The notes: generated by a model from the sequence alone, not told the origin. Counted from the first letter of the stretch, positions 1-54,933 are shown. The stretch: 64,000 nt of DNA from Candidatus Gastranaerophilales bacterium (GCA_045598245.1 JAZLLQ010000035.1:5579-69578), one strand, 5' to 3'. Translations and numbers: made by a program.

Positions 1-41
1 GTAATGAAAATTAAATAAAGAAACGCTTGCCGCGTTAGCTC
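1..41 (+). repeat. Upstream partial copy of the tRNA-Phe leader plus the first 13 nt of the tRNA (copy of 93..133)
   Basis: Hand alignment shows 1..41 equals 93..133 with 2 mismatches. The first copy is not followed by a foldable tRNA. Confidence 0.75.
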
Positions 42-120
42 TAAGGCGAATGAAATGAAGCCGATTTTGATTTCACCAACTGAGCTGACAAGGTAATGAA
101 AATTAAATAACGTAACGCTT

Positions 121-196
<76 letters not shown>

Positions 197-200
197 CTTA

Positions 201-227
201 AAAAAGACTCCTTTGGGGTCTTTTTTT
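201..227 (+). terminator. Intrinsic terminator after tRNA-Phe
   Basis: Hairpin GACTCC-TTT-GGGGTC is followed by a run of 7 T. Confidence 0.7.
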
Positions 228-279
228 ATGTCTCGAAATTGAACCTTAATCTAAACCCGCAAGTCTAACCGCTTGCTCG

Positions 280-348
280 TCCGAGACGCGGCACCATTTA
301 AAAGACTCCTTTGGGGTCTTTTTTTATGTCTCGAAATTGAACCTTAAT
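280..348 (+). repeat. Direct duplicate of the tRNA-Phe 3' end (17 nt), its terminator and the downstream flank (copy of 180..250)
   Basis: The sequence tccgagacgcggcacca..aaagactcctttggggtctttttttatgtctcgaaattgaaccttaat occurs twice. The second copy has 1 substitution and a 2-nt deletion by eye. Confidence 0.85.
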
Positions 349-614: not shown

Positions 615-1028
615 ATGTATATTTCAAATATCAACCCTCTGAAATTTGGTGCTATTAAAATTCAGCCGGCAAAAAATCGAACAGAAGCTCAAAAACAATT
701 TATTACACATCTTGCAGATACTCCATTATTTGAGCAGTCTTCATGTTTACCTATAACAGAGGACATGTTTGTCGAAGAAAAAGATAATGGAGATACAAGA
801 ATATCGGTAAAGTTTAATACTCCGAAAGGGAAATACATTATTGGTTCAGATCGTTCCTTCTTTCTAAATAGGGGTTTTGATAATCGTATACAATCAATGC
901 TTAAACCTTTTACGGAAGAAATAGAAAATTACAGACAAATGTTAAAAGATTGTACAAATGAAGATATAGAACGTTTGGAAAATGGAAAACTCATAATTAT
1001 GCCTGAGTGGATGTCTGGATTATTTTAA
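615..1028 (+). CDS. Hypothetical protein (137 aa) with N-terminus MYISNINPLKFGAIK
   Basis: ORF with a strong RBS (aaggaagga) 9 nt upstream of the ATG. I recognise no family. Confidence 0.7.
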   Translation: MYISNINPLKFGAIKIQPAKNRTEAQKQFITHLADTPLFEQSSCLPITEDMFVEEKDNGDTRISVKFNTPKGKYIIGSDRSFFLNRGFDNRIQSMLKPFTEEIENYRQMLKDCTNEDIERLENGKLIIMPEWMSGLF

Positions 1029-1042
1029 CGATTAGTTTGTAA

Positions 1043-1060
1043 GGTGCAATTTTTTGCACC
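1043..1060. other. Perfect palindrome GGTGCAA-TTTT-TTGCACC between convergent genes
   Basis: 7-bp stem with a 4-nt loop and no U-tract on either strand. It contains the TTGCAC motif. Confidence 0.5.
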
Positions 1061-1122
1061 AATTATCAACATCTCTGTTACTTTTTTTCAAACCGACTGT
1101 TAATTTACATATAGCAAAGGGT

Positions 1123-1950
1123 TTAGCTCTTGCTTTTTTGTTGCAGAAATTTAATCCAACCAAGTTCTGAAAGTGTTTGCCAAGAGCTGTGAAGAGCATC
1201 ATCCATACCGGCAGGGTAACATTTATCGACTTTTACACCGTTTGGCTTAACGCAAGACAATGTAAAATCAGGTTTGGAAATATGCTCGAAGCCTATGCCT
1301 TCTCTAAATATTGACATAAAACCGTTGTGAGAATTAATAATCTCTTTTAATCCATTTTTCCTGTCTGCTACAAACGTATATGAGGGTTTTCTGCCTGTTT
1401 GCTGTGTTGTGCTGTATACTGTTCTTAAAATTGTACCATCAACATCTCTCACTACTTTCTTGGATAAATTGGCTATACCCGTTGGTGTAGTGACGACTTT
1501 ATACGTTGTTGAAACCGATGAACCGTCTTTTGCAATTGACAGTGTCTTTCTTAATTGTCCAAATTTATCAAATACGGCACGAAGTAACCCGCCATCATCA
1601 TTTCTTGTCATGTCAACAACACATCTGTGTCTTTGAGACGCATTACCTAAAATAGCTCTTTGGGTAATATCTCTTCCGTACCAACGTTCAGAAACAGCTG
1701 CAATATTAGAATTCGATACAGAGAAATTTCTTAAAAACTGATCTGATTGGCTGACAGCATGCAACCCAAATCTGCGTGTTTGATGATACAATGTTTGTAT
1801 TGTGGGGCCATTCATACCTTTGGTTGTGACATATCCGTTACCTAATCTTGCCACTACGGATTGATATAATTGTTTTGTTCCTGTACTGAGAATTTTATTC
1901 ATACCTTTATTTATCCATGCTTTTACACTATTTGCTCTAAAAATAAACAT
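1123..1950 (-). CDS. Hypothetical protein (275 aa)
   Basis: Long ORF with no recognisable motif. The start is uncertain because no clear RBS precedes either 1950 or the internal Met at 1902. Confidence 0.6.
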   Translation of the reverse strand: MFIFRANSVKAWINKGMNKILSTGTKQLYQSVVARLGNGYVTTKGMNGPTIQTLYHQTRRFGLHAVSQSDQFLRNFSVSNSNIAAVSERWYGRDITQRAILGNASQRHRCVVDMTRNDDGGLLRAVFDKFGQLRKTLSIAKDGSSVSTTYKVVTTPTGIANLSKKVVRDVDGTILRTVYSTTQQTGRKPSYTFVADRKNGLKEIINSHNGFMSIFREGIGFEHISKPDFTLSCVKPNGVKVDKCYPAGMDDALHSSWQTLSELGWIKFLQQKSKS

Positions 1951-2109
1951 AAGAAAAATTGCTAAATGCTAACAACAGGCGTGAAATTCAAATCAGTAAT
2001 GAATTTGATATTTTAAAATTATGGGTATGGCAATTCTTTATTCTGAATTGTTTTTATAAGTATACGGATAATTATTGGGATAAAATTTATAAATTAGGAG
2101 GAATTATTA

Positions 2110-2552
2110 TGGGATTTGATGTTCACAAGGTAGATTATGTTAATGGAAGCGTGAAAGAACCTCCATTTGTTGAGGTTCAAACAGAAATCGGAAAAGTTAA
2201 AGTTGAAGCAAGCATTTTTAAAGGTCTTGTCAACGGAAAAAAAGAAGGTGATATGCCTCTTGGGGTAGAATTAACAAACGGAATAAAAATCAGAGATTTA
2301 AACAGCATATACACCCCAAATGGAGAAGTCACAATTTATGATATGCCGATATCAGGAAGCCCGAAACCAAATAGTAATGTCTGTGTATATGCAAAAGATG
2401 CTACCGTTCTTGTAGATAGCGCCAATAAGGAATACAATTCCGTAGAAATTCATAATAAAAACGGATTAGTTCACGCATATCGTGATCCTGATGACCACGT
2501 TTCATTTTATGCAGAGAATGAACAATTTTTAATCAGTCAATCTCCAAGATAA
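2110..2552 (+). CDS. Hypothetical protein (147 aa), a distant relative of the EF-hand paralogs at 39611 and 40589
   Basis: The RBS aggagg precedes the ATG at 2110, so the ORF-track start at 1959 is an upstream extension. The segment EVQTEIGKVKVEASIFKG..VELTNGIKI resembles EVTIGGVKFDLAEVEKFK..VEFKNGLVI. Confidence 0.7.
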
Positions 2553-2560
2553 ATATACAA

Positions 2561-2594
2561 AAAAGAGCTTGCATCGCAAGCTCTTTTTTGTTTT
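2561..2594 (+). terminator. Intrinsic terminator
   Basis: Hairpin GAGCTTGC-ATC-GCAAGCTC is followed by TTTTTTGTTTT. Confidence 0.85.
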
Positions 2595-2621
2595 ATTTAG
2601 TTTTAAAAAAGGTTATTAAAT

Positions 2622-2864
2622 ATGCGGAAAAAGAATGCAGTCGGCGGAATTGAAATGCTTTTGGCTTTATTGATAATTACTTTGTTATTTCTATATTTTA
2701 CGGGTAATTTCTTTGATAAAAACGGTGATAATTTCGGTGGTGATAAGAATTTAAAAGATGCAAAAGAGAAAATTGATGTCCAACTTGATGAATTGCAAAA
2801 GCAACGACAAGATTTAAATGATGAAACTCAGCGAAGGCTTAATGAATTGAATAGTGCATATTGA
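2622..2864 (+). CDS. Small membrane-anchored coiled-coil protein (80 aa)
   Basis: Contains an N-terminal hydrophobic helix (LLALLIITLLFLYF) and a charged C-terminal helix. Confidence 0.6.
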   Translation: MRKKNAVGGIEMLLALLIITLLFLYFTGNFFDKNGDNFGGDKNLKDAKEKIDVQLDELQKQRQDLNDETQRRLNELNSAY

Positions 2865-2928
2865 CAGTAATCTTGTAATTGCAATTTTATGATGTTATCA
2901 TATTTTCAGCTTTTACGTCAGGTGTGTT

Positions 2929-3345
2929 ATGAAAATCAGCCGTATAAATTCGAATGTAAATTTCTCTTCCATAGTTGTTAAAGATAGTTCTAACGCTATG
3001 GGGATTTTGAATTATCACTTTCAGTTTGCATCTTCAATTCTGGAAAAAGCCCCTAATCTGTTAGGAAAAGAAGAAGTAAAATATAAAGCAAATTTGTTGG
3101 AAAAATTAAGTAAAGCGTGGAGAGAGCTTTCAACATCTGAGGATAAAAACATTGTGCTTTCGGCTAATCCTGATATTGCGGATAAGCAAAGCATTAAATC
3201 AATAGTTGCCGCAATTGAATATATAAAGAAGGGTAAGCCTGTAACAGTTGGAACAATTTCAGGTCAAGAAAGTATTTGTCAGTTTGCGGAAAAATTATTG
3301 TCTATTCAGAAAAAGTCTTTTATAAGAAGGCTTTTGCATTTGTAA
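2929..3345 (+). CDS. Hypothetical protein (138 aa) with N-terminus MKISRINSNVNFSSI
   Basis: ORF only. I recognise no family. Confidence 0.6.
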   Translation: MKISRINSNVNFSSIVVKDSSNAMGILNYHFQFASSILEKAPNLLGKEEVKYKANLLEKLSKAWRELSTSEDKNIVLSANPDIADKQSIKSIVAAIEYIKKGKPVTVGTISGQESICQFAEKLLSIQKKSFIRRLLHL

Positions 3346-3477
3346 CCAAACTCAAGTATACAAAATGTCCGGATTATTATAATTTAGCTTAAATTGAGCA
3401 GGTTCATGTCAAAATAGCAAATTTATTTTTTACTGACCTTGATGCTATTGTAATGATTAAGGAAAAGGATTAATTTC

Positions 3478-4056
3478 ATGAATACGACAAGCCCGCTAAA
3501 TTTAAGTTTTTCAAGCATTAAAGGTATCAGCTATCGCCGTGGGGCATCGACAAGTGCTACTCCCGATTGTCAATTATCCGAACGCATAATGAAAGCGGTT
3601 GTAGACTCTCCCTTTATTCAGAATTTAGCACGTAATGAAGATATATATTTGAGTATTGCAGGACATGCTCGCTTGCGTCCATTCGTTTATGCATCTCATG
3701 ACGTTACGCTTGACATTCCGGGTAAAGGACATGTGAATTTGCATTTTAATAATACTCATTTGCATGAGAGATTTAAGCGCTTGCAAAGTGATTTGGATAA
3801 AATACCCCAATGGGCTTTTGACGGTATGTTGACACTTAGTTCAAAATTCCCTGCTAAACTTAAAAAAGCGGAAGTTAAATGTGCAGAAATGAACAAAACT
3901 GATAACGGCAAACTTAAATATTATCCGATTACTCCTGAAAGAGTATTTAAAGTCAACGATGATTTGAATATTTCAACAAAAGACATTTCAATAGCAAAAG
4001 GATTAAAACACAGACCTTTCTCAAAAGAAGTTATTGATTTCTTTTTGGTTGAATAA
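3478..4056 (+). CDS. Hypothetical protein (192 aa) with N-terminus MNTTSPLNLSFSSIKG
   Basis: ORF with the RBS aaggaaaagga upstream. I recognise no family. Confidence 0.65.
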   Translation: MNTTSPLNLSFSSIKGISYRRGASTSATPDCQLSERIMKAVVDSPFIQNLARNEDIYLSIAGHARLRPFVYASHDVTLDIPGKGHVNLHFNNTHLHERFKRLQSDLDKIPQWAFDGMLTLSSKFPAKLKKAEVKCAEMNKTDNGKLKYYPITPERVFKVNDDLNISTKDISIAKGLKHRPFSKEVIDFFLVE

Positions 4057-39512: not shown

Positions 39513-39610
39513 TCGGAATTACTTCTAATATGTTTGCATATTGGCAATTTTTGCCTCTAAAAATACTTTATTATTTTATAAACGAGATTAAAGCGATTAA
39601 GGAGAAGTTC

Positions 39611-40231
39611 ATGAGTGATTTTCAGATTTCAAGTTTACAAGGTAATCAAAACTTGTCTGCTCTGGCTCAAAAATGCGATGTAAATAATGACGGTATTCTT
39701 GATGATAACGAATATTCTATTTTTAGTGAAGGCAAAAATAGTCTGAATGAAGATCCCGGAGAAAATTTTTACAACTTCGGGAGTAATGATAGAGCTGAAG
39801 TTACAATTGGCGGAGTAAAATTCAGACTTGCTGAAGTTGATAAATTCAAGAAGAATAAAGAAGGTTCACAATTTGATAATTCTGTACTTTTCAAAAGCGG
39901 AATGATTATGAATTATGATGTTCAGTCAAAAGAAAATGGAGCTATTGCTTATTCATCAGAACCTACCTTGTGTAATCAAACATGCTCGGATTTCAGGAAT
40001 TTTAGCTCTGGTGACGGCTTGCAAATTTTAGGTTCTAAATATGATGACAGTATGTCTATATCAAATTCCAATGTTTATAATGTGATAGGTTATCAAGGTA
40101 ATGACTCAGTCTTTACGGACAATTGTCAGGGTAAAGGTCCCCACCAATTGTCCAATATAACCTCTGAAGGAAGTATGATTTTTGCTGAAAACTTTTCAGA
40201 TATCAAAAGTAAAGGACTGTATCAACATTAA
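39611..40231 (+). CDS. EF-hand/dockerin-like Ca-binding loop protein, paralog 1
   Basis: The RBS aaggag precedes the ATG at 39611. The loop DVNNDGILDDNE (39677-39712) fits the 12-residue EF-hand consensus. The protein resembles the next gene over its full length. Confidence 0.7.
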   Translation: MSDFQISSLQGNQNLSALAQKCDVNNDGILDDNEYSIFSEGKNSLNEDPGENFYNFGSNDRAEVTIGGVKFRLAEVDKFKKNKEGSQFDNSVLFKSGMIMNYDVQSKENGAIAYSSEPTLCNQTCSDFRNFSSGDGLQILGSKYDDSMSISNSNVYNVIGYQGNDSVFTDNCQGKGPHQLSNITSEGSMIFAENFSDIKSKGLYQH

Positions 40232-40588
40232 TAGCATATATTGATAATGTTGTTTATATTTATACTTTATTTTTAATGTGATGAAGCAGAAATGTTGTGC
40301 TTTAAAAAAGTTTCGGGTTTTCTGATTTGACAGTTAAGCCTGTTTTGGTTTATTGCACAGATATGCCTTGTGCTTGCTTTTGAATGGAGTAATTTCCCGT
40401 AAATATATAATATACCTGCTACCATGTATTTTACAATGATTTAAGTAATACAGGTTGAATAATATTATTCTCTTATTTCTTTTAACGAAAGCATTTCAGA
40501 ATTAATTGTTATTCAGGTTTGGCAATTTTTGCTCCAAAAAATACTTTATTACTTTATAGACGAGATTAAAGAGATTAAGGAGAAATTT

Positions 40589-41179
40589 ATGAGTGATTTT
40601 AAGGTTTCAAGTTTGCATGGTGATCAACAAAAATTGGCGCAAAAGTGTGACATAAATAATGACGGTATTCTTGACGATAAAGAATACTCCGTTTTTGAAG
40701 AAGGTAAAGAAAGCATGAAAAATGTCAAGCCCGGTTTTTTTAATTTTTGGGGCAAAGAAAAAACTGAGGTTACGATTGGCGGAGTAAAATTTGACCTTGC
40801 AGAAGTTGAAAAATTCAAGAAAAACAGTAAAGAGTCAAAATACGATAATCAGGTAGAGTTTAAAAACGGCTTGGTTATTGATTATGATGTTCAGGCAAAA
40901 GGAAATAAAGCATCGGCAAATTCCGATACTCCGTCTAAAAGGGGACAAACTCTAACTTCTGTAAAGGGTTTTTGTTCCGGTGATGGGGTGCGAGTTTCCG
41001 GCACTGATTATCATGAAGATATAGTTATATCAGATTCTGTAGTAGGCGGTGTAATAGCTTATGGCGGTGATGATTCTGTAGCTACAACCAATTGCAAAGG
41101 TTATGAGGGCGGAAGCATGATTTCTGCAGAAGATTACTCTGACATTGCAAGTGAAGATATTTATCATCGCGAAGAATAA
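40589..41179 (+). CDS. EF-hand/dockerin-like Ca-binding loop protein, paralog 2
   Basis: The RBS aaggag precedes the ATG at 40589. The loop is DINNDGILDDKE (40649-40684). It carries a GGDDSV RTX-like remnant. Confidence 0.7.
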   Translation: MSDFKVSSLHGDQQKLAQKCDINNDGILDDKEYSVFEEGKESMKNVKPGFFNFWGKEKTEVTIGGVKFDLAEVEKFKKNSKESKYDNQVEFKNGLVIDYDVQAKGNKASANSDTPSKRGQTLTSVKGFCSGDGVRVSGTDYHEDIVISDSVVGGVIAYGGDDSVATTNCKGYEGGSMISAEDYSDIASEDIYHREE

Positions 41180-47457: not shown

Positions 47458-49323
47458 TTGAATTATAAAGGTAGTGACATAAACTCAGGAAGTAACCAGA
47501 GTACAGATAATCATGTCGGAATGAATCATGTCAGTCCGATAAAGGCTTTTCCTCGAAATACCATGCCGGGACAGCAGAAAACTGCCAACAGATTATTTGG
47601 TGGTATGGCTTCTCATAGCGGTTATCAGAATGTTTTTACCATTCAAAGCAATATAGATCCCCTTGATGTCCTTTATGATTTTTCTTCAATAGCAAAATCA
47701 AAAAGAAATATGCAGGATGTTTATTATTTGCTTCATAACATTGCGGTTACGAGATTAGGACTCGCATTTAGTGCTTTAGGTATCATAAATTCGCAATCAA
47801 ATTGTATCAATATTCAACTCTTAGACAGAATTGGTAACTCCTTCACCTCAAGAGCATTATTGACGCAACCACAAAACCCCATTGTTAAAGCATTTGTGGA
47901 TAAAATTCCTCAAACTGTTACAGATAATGAGTTTTTAAAAATAGATTATATTCCGAAAACAAAATCACTTATCCTTCCAATGATTTTTCAAGGCAACTGT
48001 TATGGTGTACTTATCCTTGGATACAGTGAATTAACACAACAGTGCAGTGATTTATTGCAAATACTTGTTGATTATATGGCATTGCATGTTGCCAGTTCAC
48101 AATTAAATGAATTATCTACTTTGAATGGTGATACAGATATATTGACGGGATTAAAAACCCATAGAGCTTTCCAAGAGTCGCTTTCTAACGAGATACAAAA
48201 GGCGGAAGAAAATGACAAGCCTATCTCTGTTGTTATTTTTGATGTTAACAATATTTCTCAAATAAACAGAGAATTTGGTCATGCAAAAGGTGATGAAATC
48301 ATCAAACTTGTATCGGAAAAAATCAAGCAAAATATACGCAGCATTGATGTTGCCGGCAGATACGGCGGTGACGAAATTGCTTTAATTTTACCGGATACAG
48401 ATAACTCCGAAGCAACATACATTACTGAATATCTGACGTATTCATTATCTTGTTGTTTGGTTGACGATGTCGGTTCGGTTAAGGTAAGTGTTGGTATTGC
48501 AACATATCCGACTTGTGCAAGAGAGCAGGAAAAATTATTAATTCTTGCAGAACAGGCAATGATTATTTCCAAAAATAAAGGTTATAAAAACGGTATATCC
48601 ACTGCCGTAAATGCTCAGGATATCAATTTCTGGAATGAAGCAGCCTTGGATTCGTTTGCATCGGTTATTGCCAAACGTCACAGTCAATTAGGTTTGAACT
48701 TTGAAGAAGAATTGGTTGATAAATTCCACTCTGACAGTTTGAATTCAAATAATCACATGATAGACGTTGTAACGTCTTTGGCGGGTGCAATTGATGCGAA
48801 AGACACATATACAAAAGGTCATTCGGTTTCGGTTTCAAGATATGCTGAAGCGTTGGCAAGAGCACTTAATTTACCTGATGATGAAGTCGAGCGTATTAAA
48901 CTTGGTGCATTACTCCACGATGTCGGGAAAATAGGTATTCCTGAAAACGTACTTGGCAGAACAAGTAAACTCGCCGATGACGAATGGGAAATTATGAAAC
49001 AACACCCTGTTATTGGTGCGGAAAAGGTATTAGCTCCGGTTGATGCATTGCGTGACCTTATTCCAATGGTTAAACACCATCATGAACATTGGGACGGCTC
49101 AGGTTATCCCGATAATCTGAAAGGCGAAGAAATACCTTTGGCAGCAAGAATTGTTGCGGTAGCTGATACTTTCCACGCTTTAATCAGCGACAGACCGTAC
49201 AGAAAAGGTTTGCCTATCGAAAAAGCTATTGAGATATTAAGAATTGGTGCCGGTATTCAGTGGGATAGTGAGCTTGTCAGGAAATTCATAGTTATTGCAC
49301 CTTCATTGATTACTACGATTTAG
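47458..49323 (+). CDS. GAF-like, GGDEF and HD-GYP c-di-GMP turnover protein
   Basis: RYGGDEIALIL (GGDEF) and HDVGKIGIP...HHEHWDGSGYP (HD-GYP). The TTG start is preceded by aggaag, and alternative ATG starts lie downstream. Confidence 0.85.
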   Translation: MNYKGSDINSGSNQSTDNHVGMNHVSPIKAFPRNTMPGQQKTANRLFGGMASHSGYQNVFTIQSNIDPLDVLYDFSSIAKSKRNMQDVYYLLHNIAVTRLGLAFSALGIINSQSNCINIQLLDRIGNSFTSRALLTQPQNPIVKAFVDKIPQTVTDNEFLKIDYIPKTKSLILPMIFQGNCYGVLILGYSELTQQCSDLLQILVDYMALHVASSQLNELSTLNGDTDILTGLKTHRAFQESLSNEIQKAEENDKPISVVIFDVNNISQINREFGHAKGDEIIKLVSEKIKQNIRSIDVAGRYGGDEIALILPDTDNSEATYITEYLTYSLSCCLVDDVGSVKVSVGIATYPTCAREQEKLLILAEQAMIISKNKGYKNGISTAVNAQDINFWNEAALDSFASVIAKRHSQLGLNFEEELVDKFHSDSLNSNNHMIDVVTSLAGAIDAKDTYTKGHSVSVSRYAEALARALNLPDDEVERIKLGALLHDVGKIGIPENVLGRTSKLADDEWEIMKQHPVIGAEKVLAPVDALRDLIPMVKHHHEHWDGSGYPDNLKGEEIPLAARIVAVADTFHALISDRPYRKGLPIEKAIEILRIGAGIQWDSELVRKFIVIAPSLITTI

Positions 49324-50723: not shown

Positions 50724-51161
50724 ATGAAGTTACAAACGACAAAATTTGGGGAAGTCGAGGTTAGCGAAGATTATGTATTCACTTTTGTAGAGCCGATTAT
50801 AGGCTATGATGAATACAAGGAGTTTGCACTAATAGATTATAATGAAAAATCCCCGTTTAAGTGGTTGCAAGCGGTGGATAATCCGGAATTGGCATTACCT
50901 GTAACAATACCTGCTTATTTTGGAATACCATATCAATTTACAATTCCTGATGAAAAAGAAAATATATTAGAAGCAAAAGATGCAAACAGCATTTTGGCAT
51001 TGAATATAGCCAATATTCCCAACGGAGAACCTCAAAATGCAACCGTTAATTTGTTAGCACCAATTGTAGTCAATACGGATAACAAAAAAGCAATCCAGCT
51101 TATACTTACGAATAGTGATTTCTCCGTAAGATACAAGATTTTTAATTATAAGGATAAATAA
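50724..51161 (+). CDS. fliW: Flagellar assembly factor FliW
   Basis: FliW-like sequence (T.FGE.EV.ED.V..F..GI.G...YK.F.L......PF.WLQ). The gene is directly coupled to csrA by an ATGA-type overlap at 51161. Confidence 0.88.
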   Translation: MKLQTTKFGEVEVSEDYVFTFVEPIIGYDEYKEFALIDYNEKSPFKWLQAVDNPELALPVTIPAYFGIPYQFTIPDEKENILEAKDANSILALNIANIPNGEPQNATVNLLAPIVVNTDNKKAIQLILTNSDFSVRYKIFNYKDK

Positions 51162-51451
51162 TGTTAGTACTAACCAGAAAATTAGGGCAAAGCATAATAA
51201 TTAATGACAATGTTGAAGTTACTATCCTTGAAGTAAAAGGCGAGTCTGTTCGTATTGGTGTTGAAGCACCAAGAGAAGTGGCTGTATACAGGCGTGAAAT
51301 ATACGAAGAAATTAAACGAGAAAACCAAAATACTGCTAAGCAATCTTCTTTGGAAGATGTTTCTTTGGCATTAGATATGCTAAAAACTTATAATACAAGT
51401 TCTAAACAAGATTTCAAAATTGTTATAAATAAGAAAAATGATAAAAAATAG
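51161..51451 (+). CDS. csrA: Carbon storage regulator CsrA (FliW-partnered type with C-terminal extension)
   Basis: MLVLTRKLGQSIIINDNVEVTILEVKGESVRIGVEAPREVAVYRREIYE is the canonical CsrA sequence. Confidence 0.95.
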   Translation: MLVLTRKLGQSIIINDNVEVTILEVKGESVRIGVEAPREVAVYRREIYEEIKRENQNTAKQSSLEDVSLALDMLKTYNTSSKQDFKIVINKKNDKK

Positions 51452-54345: not shown

Positions 54346-54918
54346 ATGTCTAAACACAATAACGAAGAAGAAATAAAAGAAAATGCGTTTGTGCAGGATG
54401 TTCAAAGTGTCGAAGCAGCGCAGGAAGAAGATTTAGAGAATAAAACCTGTGAAGATACCACACCTGATAATAATACTTCGTCCAATGAAGAGCTTGAAAA
54501 TTTAAAAAATCAGTACATCCGTCTTGCTGCAGACTTTGATAATTACAGAAAAAGACAAGCTCAAGAAAGAGAAAGTCTTTTAAAGTATGGAGCAGAAAGC
54601 ACATTAAAACTGTTACTTCCTGTTCTTGACAATTATTACAGAGGCAAACAGGCATGCGAAAACATGGATGATTGTGTTAAATTAAAAGAAAGTTTTGATG
54701 TTATTTTCAAGCAATTTTTTGATGCTTTGGATAAGGCAGGTTTGAAAAGAATTGAAACAATCGGCAAAGAGTTTGACCCAAATATTCATGAAGCTGTTAT
54801 GCAAACACCTACGAGTGAACATCCTGATAATACGATAGTTGATGAATTGCAGGCAGGATATATGCTTGAGGACAGAGTACTTCGTGTGGCAATGGTTAAT
54901 GTTGCCGTTGGAGAGTAG
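54346..54918 (+). CDS. grpE: Nucleotide exchange factor GrpE
   Basis: YIRLAADFDNYRKR and the C-terminal beta-domain GY.L.DRVLR.A.V are GrpE hallmarks. Confidence 0.93.
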   Translation: MSKHNNEEEIKENAFVQDVQSVEAAQEEDLENKTCEDTTPDNNTSSNEELENLKNQYIRLAADFDNYRKRQAQERESLLKYGAESTLKLLLPVLDNYYRGKQACENMDDCVKLKESFDVIFKQFFDALDKAGLKRIETIGKEFDPNIHEAVMQTPTSEHPDNTIVDELQAGYMLEDRVLRVAMVNVAVGE

Positions 54919-54933
54919 TGGGGAAAATTTGTA

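Follow-up and report, generated by a model that had tools for sequence, protein, structure and literature searches.

When many unrelated bacterial proteins share a consensus peptide at the extreme N-terminus, this peptide is typically a sorting signal. The signals of type III secretion systems occupy the first ∼25 residues, are rich in serine, threonine, proline, and asparagine, poor in leucine and acidic residues (a signature on which predictors such as EffectiveT3 draw), and have no hydrophobic core; they are degenerate and tolerant to mutation, and we know of no sequence consensus for them. The present study concerns a short N-terminal tag found on small orphan proteins that are encoded on a stretch of 64,000 nucleotides from a Candidatus Gastranaerophilales bacterium (GCA_045598245.1, JAZLLQ010000035.1:5579-69578), the whole of which is referred to here as the window. 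This tag is genuine, specific to the N-terminus, and selected as a peptide, and it occurs across the order Candidatus Gastranaerophilales (Melainabacteria). The original prediction had singled out five proteins of the window as sharing nothing but their N-termini; its core idea, a functional tag common to otherwise unrelated proteins, is strongly supported and now spans ∼20 unrelated families of the order. Gastranaerophilales are widespread, uncultured, non-photosynthetic relatives of cyanobacteria in the gut, and much of their proteome is without an assigned function.

Results

The tag exceeds chance and composition

A hidden Markov model (HMM) was trained solely on the N-termini of the family to which a GHKL-type ATPase of 863 amino acids (aa) encoded in the window belongs, and genes outside this family were then scored. 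The test set comprised 79 loci (1.46 Mb) from metagenome-assembled genomes of Gastranaerophilales and other Melainabacteria, which had been fetched via the 863-aa family. Scores of at least 10 bits were reached by 17 of 1126 N-termini beginning at the first ATG, but by only 2 of 4721 segments beginning at internal methionines of the same genes (Fisher 7e-11), and by 0.1 after shuffling. When the threshold was lowered to 6 bits, 43 N-termini and 17 internal segments matched (Fisher 1e-18), compared with 4 after shuffling. Internal methionines were followed by a match at a rate 36-fold below that of the N-termini. The F-x-[GAS] half of the tag, when considered alone, was three- to fivefold enriched within residues 1–30 and 1.5- to threefold within residues 30–60; beyond residue 60, it occurred at or under expectation. 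A lack of enrichment beyond what an AT-rich composition would produce (the GC content of the window is 33%) had been named beforehand as refuting the tag; enrichment was found against the shuffled and the internal-methionine controls alike. None of 143 N-termini reached 6 bits in 100 kb of Bacillus phage G, an unrelated genome with a GC content of 30%.

At the conserved positions of the tag, proline is encoded by CCG, CCT, CCA, or CCC, isoleucine by ATT, ATA, or ATC, glycine by GGT, GGC, or GGA, and serine by TCN as well as AGY. Because synonymous codons vary freely there, selection acts on the peptide and not on the RNA. No DNA repeat was shared upstream of the genes or within their first codons, and Rfam revealed nothing in the window beyond two tRNAs.

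The tag is 13–22 residues long and bipartite. Its first half has the consensus M1-[N/Y/K/Q]-[I/V]3-[T/S/N]-P5-[I/V]6-[N/S]7 and is followed, after a spacer of 0–10 residues, by [V/I/P]-[N/S/K]-F-[S/Q/K]-[A/G/S]-[K/R]-K-[P/K], with the phenylalanine at residue 11–22, a small residue two positions on (F+2), and then lysine or arginine. Isoleucine or valine occupies positions 3 and 6 in 43–44 of 45 tags, and proline position 5 in 26 of them; F/Y and, two residues on, A/G/S are also consensus in this set, their conservation being partly built into the seed alignment, in which the tags were anchored on [FY]-x-[GAS]. Across 30 non-redundant tags, aspartate (0%), glutamate (0.6%), and leucine (2.3%) are depleted when compared with other N-termini (4.1%, 6.1%, and 10.2%, respectively), and asparagine, serine, proline, and tyrosine are about twofold commoner (1.7- to 2.1-fold for the first three). 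The absence of any hydrophobic stretch completes the acid-free, non-hydrophobic character that had been ascribed to the five proteins initially.

None of the resources searched describes the tag. Over residues 1–25 of 10 carriers, no model of Pfam-A or NCBIfam matched at E ≤ 1, nor did one in the further Pfam scans. When a tag profile of 29 positions was compared exhaustively with 1.84 billion proteins, only four matches were returned (two repeat-protein artefacts and two family fragments), this type of search being blind to the tag because the motif is too short to attain significance. A degenerate DNA pattern for the tag had 0 matches in viral contigs, and tblastn with the consensus tag retrieved nothing among 72,556 plasmids and 50,697 phage records. 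Literature searches did not yield a description of the tag.

Tagged genes of the window

All five open reading frames (ORFs) considered initially, beginning at positions 615, 2929, 3478, 58599, and 58975 (Table 1), are real, and their N-termini read exactly as quoted. They are also mutually unrelated elsewhere, as had been claimed; the best E value in pairwise BLASTP comparisons past residue 25 was 0.2. The shared N-terminus is robust in ORFs 615, 2929, and 58975, is confined to the second half of the tag in ORF 3478, and is indistinguishable from background in ORF 58599. The tag is genuine on three, and possibly on a fourth, of these five small orphan proteins.

For the three robust carriers, ORFs 615, 2929, and 58975, the family-only HMM gave 14.7, 15.3, and 10.1 bits, respectively, and the HMM built from all seeds 15.8, 20.4, and 16.8 bits. 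When anchored at the methionine and applied to the 540 ORFs of the window that begin with ATG, the family-only HMM returned 3.1 bits for the best match after these three, and the chance of at least three such matches at the internal-methionine background rate is 0.0017 (Poisson). The ATG of ORF 58975 falls within a longer ORF with a TTG start (58954-59358). ORF 3478 is without the M-x-I-x-x-I half; its 3.0 bits on an HMM of the half-motif rank third in the window, and HMM positions 10–17 matched it locally with 4.3 bits. It is a plausible degenerate carrier that, individually, is not significant.

ORF 58599, the N-terminus of which looks tag-like by eye (NLKFNGD), is not supported as a carrier, its −0.9 to 2.6 bits being inside the background. 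The ending F-[GSN]-[GSA]-[ILVG], which had been claimed for all five proteins, does not hold for it either, because its stretch closes F-N-G-D. Residues 70–116 form a zinc-ribbon-like C-terminus (C-x...YPCSKCNGWHIG) that matches the phage family phrog_15216 (function unknown; 2.8e-7). Apart from this match, none of the five ORFs belonged to a family of Pfam, NCBIfam, PADLOC, or PHROG, and none had a homologue among 1294 ORFs of the related loci. Among 5.8 billion proteins, ORF 2929 and ORF 58599 each had a single homologue (98% and 96% identical, respectively), with the tag of ORF 2929 being identical there. A single-sequence AlphaFold2 (AF2) model of ORF 2929 was uninformative (predicted local distance difference test [pLDDT], 40.7), and contig look-ups by exact protein for ORF 2929 and P0002 gave no match.

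Four further proteins of the window resembled carriers on inspection but failed on the HMM: the 863-aa ATPase (KHFGAS), a 564-aa protein (PAFGSLE), and a 621-aa GGDEF/HD-GYP protein (MNHVSPIKAF) scored at most 3 bits, and a 1033-aa protein (LKLNGAG, and FGSLTN three times) at most 1.6 bits.

Carriers across the order

Many carriers have no Pfam domain. The others include a divergent GAPDH-like protein, CheR-like S-adenosylmethionine (SAM) methyltransferases (three paralogues in locus L078), a DUF2963 protein, two proteins with weak matches to the protein kinase domain that lie under the Pfam cut-off, and a GH77 4-α-glucanotransferase (MalQ-like) in syntenic position. Most carriers are fast-evolving orphans, accompanied by kinase-like, methyltransferase, GAPDH-like, and GHKL enzymes. 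The carriers reach 650 aa or more in size, and hydrophobic segments are missing from the majority. In one kinase-like carrier, the sole membrane segment lies near the C-terminus, and a very basic 336-aa family has two to four hydrophobic segments; in the K-rich linker of the latter, the second half of the tag is also kept internally, as [ND]-[VI]-N-F-T-G. At its C-terminus, the tagged GAPDH-like protein (locus L076, 12158-13663, minus strand) is extended by a stretch in which an acidic repeat occurs twice (EEYGDSIDQLDPAFEEYMRGRSGEDL and EYYGDAIDEVNPVFEEYMRSRSGEDL).

The tag is modular, that is, it is gained and lost between orthologues. Six of eight GH77 orthologues are tagged, and the copy in the window is not. 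A GFGSF sequence in the window's enzyme was rejected as a tag; it is presumably the enzyme's own conserved G-x-G motif.

The same holds for the GHKL-type ATPase. The 863-aa protein of the window has 146 homologues, every named source of which is a Candidatus Gastranaerophilales or Melainabacteria. Many of them open with the tag (e.g., MQITPVNNVNFSARKP, MYITPINNSVKFSAQKP, MSITPINVVNFSGSK, and MEISKIKSNFCTPLNFKGE), and among the matches listed, 36 of 120 family members are tagged at 8 bits or more. The copy in the window has lost the canonical tag (MAGNITPQGY...KHFGAS; at most 0.6 bits). In this family, the tag, where present, is followed by a polar K/R-rich linker, one hydrophobic segment, and a coiled coil; the members have the ATPase fold, and the glycines of the ATP lid and a C-terminal HELxH...GGDG are invariant. 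No match was found in Pfam or PADLOC, and a profile of the family retrieved only coiled-coil noise from the PDB sequences. The predicted structure (AF2; pLDDT 80.7) resembles Hsp90/TRAP1, GyrB, and MutL according to Foldseek, and its residues 1–85 are disordered. In this family, the one that was modelled, the tag sits on a disordered leader. The positive-inside rule favors neither orientation of the membrane segment, lysine and arginine being equally frequent on both sides of it. Giant members of 2100–2500 aa are encoded in loci L017 and L020, and many close homologues have a second motif in their N-terminal tail, L-E-R-[ST]-P-x-x-D-[ST]-F.

Genomic setting

Tagged genes cluster around genes of the GHKL family. 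Within 5 kb of such a gene, 19 of 434 genes are tagged, compared with 10 of 777 farther away, a 3.5-fold difference for which the p-value of 0.0013 is optimistic because orthologous neighbors of related genomes were counted. Depending on the distance from the GHKL gene, the tagged share of the sampled loci is ∼0.5–4% of the genes; the genome-wide frequency is probably nearer to 0.5–1.5% than to 4%, because the sample is centered on the GHKL family, where tagged genes accumulate. When all 1294 ORFs were clustered, no candidate for a receptor (a conserved, untagged neighbor) emerged.

In the window, the first cluster lies just downstream of tRNA-Phe, with duplicated tRNA fragments alongside, as the original prediction had it, and is bounded by this scarred tRNA gene and by tRNA-Glu. 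Nucleotides 1–41 repeat 93–133 (95%; upstream sequence and 5′ end of the tRNA), and 202–250 repeat 300–348 (100%; terminator hairpin and downstream sequence), with the 3′ end of the tRNA recurring at 281–297. Such duplications resemble what repeated rounds of integration and excision would leave behind at the tRNA. One of the window's prepilin-like N-termini (KKGFTIAEILLTLALIG, and an 80-aa protein with VGGIEMLLALLII) is encoded inside this cluster; pilin-like genes also adjoin the GHKL gene in 12 loci.

The second cluster occupies a slot downstream of a block consisting of grpE, dnaJ, a gene for a secreted protein (480–626 aa; 626 aa here), and an O-methyltransferase gene. The block is conserved in L017, L020, and L043, where the slot is filled by a GHKL-family gene; in the window, it contains ORFs 58599 and 58975 and the gene for the 1033-aa protein. 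The repeat [GS]-F-G-S-L-T-N occurs three times inside this low-complexity protein, which also has a hydrophobic core region rich in Gly/Ala and an acidic tail, and is without a homologue in the 79 related loci.

The window also contains a pair of genes for FliW (Pfam 9e-35) and CsrA, the latter recognized by eye from MLVLTRKLGQSIIINDNVEVTILEV. In other bacteria, the two form a partner-switch module by which the synthesis of flagellin is tied to export. No flagellin gene was found near the pair. A FliR-like ORF in locus L059 was identified by eye only. For the order, complete or partial flagellar gene sets have been reported (PMC5877343).

PADLOC returned nothing relevant for the proteins of the clusters. 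Elsewhere in the window, a 1024-aa helicase with a C-terminal nuclease domain (best PADLOC matches: PDC-S37 [1e-63], Mokosh MkoC and MkoA, and Hhe) is likely a single-gene anti-phage defense protein. Two tandem paralogues share ILYYFI[ND]EIK..EKFMSDF..SSL and an EF-hand-like D-x-N-x-D-G-I-L-D loop, and the GGDEF/HD-GYP protein points to cyclic di-GMP signaling.

Table 1. Positions of tagged genes and other features in the window.
Feature	Position	Strand	Remarks
tRNA-Phe with duplicated fragments	1..348 (tRNA 121-196)	+	Borders the first tag cluster
Orphan gene, 137 aa	615..1028	+	Residues 1-15 (615-659, MYISNINPLKFGAIK): full tag
Prepilin-like N-terminus	2622-2864	+	
Orphan gene, 138 aa	2929..3345	+	Residues 1-16 (2929-2976, MKISRINSNVNFSSIV): full tag, best of the window
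Orphan gene, 192 aa	3478..4056	+	Residues 1-16 (3478-3525, MNTTSPLNLSFSSIKG): second half only, L-N-L-S-F-S-S
Membrane-anchored GHKL-type ATPase, 863 aa	5555..8146	-	C-terminal HExxH; probable start ATG 8119
SF1 helicase (AAA_11/AAA_12), 1024 aa	12695-15769	+	C-terminal REase_MTES_1575 nuclease
GH77 (MalQ-like) enzyme	17309-19228		Untagged
Prepilin-like N-terminus	22999-23841	+	GFTIAEILL
Tandem paralogues	39530-40231, 40529-41179	+	EF-hand-like loop
GGDEF and HD-GYP (HD_5) protein	47458-49323	+	Probable start MNHVSPIKAF, tag-like by eye only
FliW and CsrA	50724-51451	+	
grpE-dnaJ-(secreted protein)-O-methyltransferase block	54346-58544		Upstream of the second cluster
Orphan gene, 124 aa	58599..58973	+	C-terminal zinc ribbon-like; N-terminal 24 residues (58599-58670) tag-like by eye
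Orphan gene, 127 aa	58975..59358	+	Residues 1-15 (58975-59019, MKINSVNSQNFNGGV): full tag
Low-complexity protein, 1033 aa	59421..62522	-	Ala/Gln/Glu/Ser-rich; adjoins the second cluster

Discussion

What the tag may do

The account that we favor, granting it somewhat less than an even chance as a whole, is that the tag is a lineage-specific, modular targeting signal with a partner of its own. This partner, a single conserved receptor, chaperone, or gate, would recognize both the Phe-x-small motif and the free N-terminus and would route all carriers to one common destination, most likely outside the cytosol of the producer. The route would be independent of Sec, because the carriers are without a hydrophobic signal peptide; the position and composition of the tag, the assortment of orphans and enzymes that carry it, its location in islands, and the flagellar genes also suggest Sec-independent routing. 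The flagellar type III apparatus is the sole candidate machine with evidence in the lineage, although we regard it as unlikely to be the specific route. A similarly doubtful extension of this idea is that the tag could be the address label of an undescribed Sec-independent delivery pathway, for example, a re-used flagellar type III apparatus exporting an effector-like repertoire. This repertoire would consist of the kinase-like enzymes, the methyltransferases, the membrane-inserting GHKL ATPase, and the fast-evolving orphans, and the partial flagellar gene sets could be the remnant of the export apparatus. If so, gut Gastranaerophilales would manipulate other cells.

A number of observations weigh against such targeting. 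The routing step is inferred, and both destination and partner are proposals. GH77, normally a cytoplasmic enzyme, is among the carriers, and the syntenic position of its tagged gene is conserved; every enzyme domain attached to a tag uses ATP, SAM, or NAD. The 336-aa family and the kinase-like protein with a C-terminal membrane segment are tagged as well, and these carriers fit a tag that stays on the cytoplasmic side. The clustering near GHKL genes is, as mentioned, less significant than its p-value would suggest. A search of the 1.5 Mb yielded neither rod nor hook nor flagellin genes, the products of which would be true flagellar substrates. The strict bipartite consensus, with I3, I6, the phenylalanine, and the small residue at F+2 being near-invariant, departs from type III signals; the N-termini of Yop, Ipa, Sop, and flagellin proteins reached at most 4.4 bits on the tag HMM, which is below background, and no PDB chain matched the tag profile at E ≤ 10.

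Alternative explanations

That the tag has no function at all, and merely reflects AT-rich codon bias at gene starts, a nucleotide element, or chance, is extremely improbable. Asparagine, lysine, isoleucine, serine, phenylalanine, and tyrosine do have AT-rich codons, the genome has only 33% GC, and ORFs 3478 and 58599 score inside or near the background; shuffled N-termini, however, keep the composition and lose the signal (0.1 instead of 17 matches at 10 bits or more), internal methionines and the unrelated 30%-GC genome do not reproduce it, and the freedom of synonymous codons, the lack of upstream DNA similarity, and the lack of an Rfam element argue against a nucleotide feature. For the three strong carriers, this explanation is refuted. 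A far more serious contender is a tag that stays in the cytosol without any export, where it would either tether its clients to a hub as a docking motif or act as an N-terminal degradation signal in two parts, one site for an adaptor and one for the protease; we consider it nearly as likely as targeting, if still less likely than not when taken alone. The attached catalytic domains (GH77, GAPDH-like, CheR-like SAM methyltransferase, kinase-like, and GHKL) use cytosolic cofactors, the tagged GH77 enzymes are orthologous to, and in synteny with, the untagged MalQ-like enzyme of the window, and under the usual topology the kinase-like protein with the C-terminal membrane segment places its tag in the cytoplasm. 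The internal half-motif in the K-rich linker of the 336-aa family could serve in docking, and the disordered, K/R-rich stretch behind the tag would suit a degradation signal with its initiation region. Nevertheless, internal copies are not enriched overall, the peptides that form a consensus at the extreme N-terminus are as a rule sorting signals rather than docking motifs, and neither the islands nor the orphan status of most carriers is predicted by a cytosolic role. For the GHKL family, targeting and a cytosolic role predict the opposite, because the membrane segment parts the tag from the ATPase; if the segment spans the membrane, both cannot be cytoplasmic.

The proximity to GHKL genes raises the question whether the tag is a leader for the neighboring GHKL-ATPase/HExxH protein, which would cleave after F-x-[GAS] or act as a chaperone for the carriers. 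The 3.5-fold higher density of tagged genes within 5 kb, the slot behind the grpE-dnaJ block, which is filled by a GHKL gene in three loci and by tagged and orphan genes in the window, the invariant HELxH...GGDG, the conserved small residue at F+2 with K/R after it, and the parallel to bacteriocin leaders with their adjacent peptidase-transporters are all consistent with this. Against it, a third of the GHKL proteins listed are themselves tagged, with a single membrane segment they hardly look like a translocon, their C-terminal domain yielded no protease fold, and many tagged genes, such as ORF 58975, are far from any GHKL gene; we deem a leader function, with its putative cleavage, improbable. 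Still less credible is a self-association motif, by which an N/S-rich segment with a single aromatic residue would assemble the carriers together into a condensate or fiber, in the manner of NFGAIL- and NFGAFS-type segments. The tags are indeed rich in N, S, Y, and F, free of charge, and poor in leucine, their spacer varies in length, and the 1033-aa neighbor has its three FGSLTN repeats. But these repeats do not score on the tag HMM, and M1, I3, P5, I6, and the distance to the first methionine are strictly kept, unlike in a compositional sticker.

Whether it targets its carriers or not, the tag groups many proteins of ∼20 families, for much of which no function had been assigned, into one functional class, and it opens a question that can be tested, namely, what Gastranaerophilales deliver, assemble, or regulate. 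Should it serve in export, secretion independent of Sec would rarely have been seen to depend on a signal so defined in sequence, and a ready predictor of effectors would be at hand for the whole order; as a docking or degradation tag, it would define a new regulatory hub.

Comparison with known signals

Sec and lipoprotein signal features (a basic n-region followed by a hydrophobic h-region of 10–20 residues, and a lipobox cysteine) are absent from the tags, which are polar; the window does encode ordinary Sec signals, one of them at 56083 (MKRIFAVFLFLIMLIGSQEAFA). The twin-arginine translocation (Tat) signal, S-R-R-x-F-L-K, does not apply either, no tag containing RR. In type IV prepilin leaders, glycine precedes phenylalanine or methionine, in contrast to the F-x-G of the tag, and a hydrophobic stretch of ∼20 residues with glutamate at +5 comes next, whereas no hydrophobic stretch follows the tag; the true prepilin-like N-termini of the window (Table 1) are separate from it. 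The extended signal peptide region (ESPR) of type V secretion, the YSIRK-G/S motif, and the Tat motif are like the tag in being short N-terminal sequences that are found on unrelated passengers and read by a sorting machinery. However, they all stand ahead of a hydrophobic h-region and lead into Sec or Tat, whereas most carriers of the tag are without a hydrophobic segment.

Double-glycine leaders are comparable in that a short leader ends in a small residue and, in the present case, the carriers lie beside a membrane ATPase with a putative peptidase motif. Unlike in these leaders, which are cleaved at G-[GAS], F+1 is S, Q, or K and not glycine, the LSxxELxxIxGG pattern is missing, acidic residues and leucine are nearly so, and the carriers are full-size proteins; no gene for a C39 peptidase or an ABC transporter was found among the scanned neighbors. 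The cargo-targeting peptides of encapsulins and microcompartments and the N-terminus of BclA, which targets the exosporium, resemble the tag as modular terminal peptides with a flexible linker that are gained or lost among orthologues; these peptides bring diverse enzymes into one assembly. Their sequences are unrelated to the tag, which lacks a GSL motif and the form of an amphipathic helix, and no shell or scaffold gene was recognized in the window or the loci. The layout of the GHKL family (conserved N-terminal peptide, linker, one membrane segment, and coiled coil) recalls that of PilN, the INLLP peptide of which is bound by PilM, but the sequence differs (PilN, −2.2 bits), and the tag is spread over ∼20 families instead of a single one. 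Like the tag with its two halves and spacer, the degradation tag ssrA is bipartite, with one site for SspB and one for ClpX.

The original prediction had likened the five N-termini to type III secretion signals and proposed export through a flagellar-type apparatus, with a shared degradation, assembly, or chaperone tag as the other option. The likeness to type III signals holds for position and composition: like the tag, such signals comprise at most 25 residues without a hydrophobic core, are rich in Ser, Asn, Pro, and Ile and poor in leucine and acidic residues, and are found on unrelated, often orphan or enzyme-bearing, proteins from islands. It does not extend to the strict consensus, which is foreign to that class, nor to those carriers that, unlike type III substrates, have several hydrophobic segments. 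Because no class fits fully and neither databases nor the literature provided a match, the tag is ranked as a new N-terminal recognition or sorting tag, the action of which would come closest to that of a type III signal or of some other sorting motif at the N-terminus.

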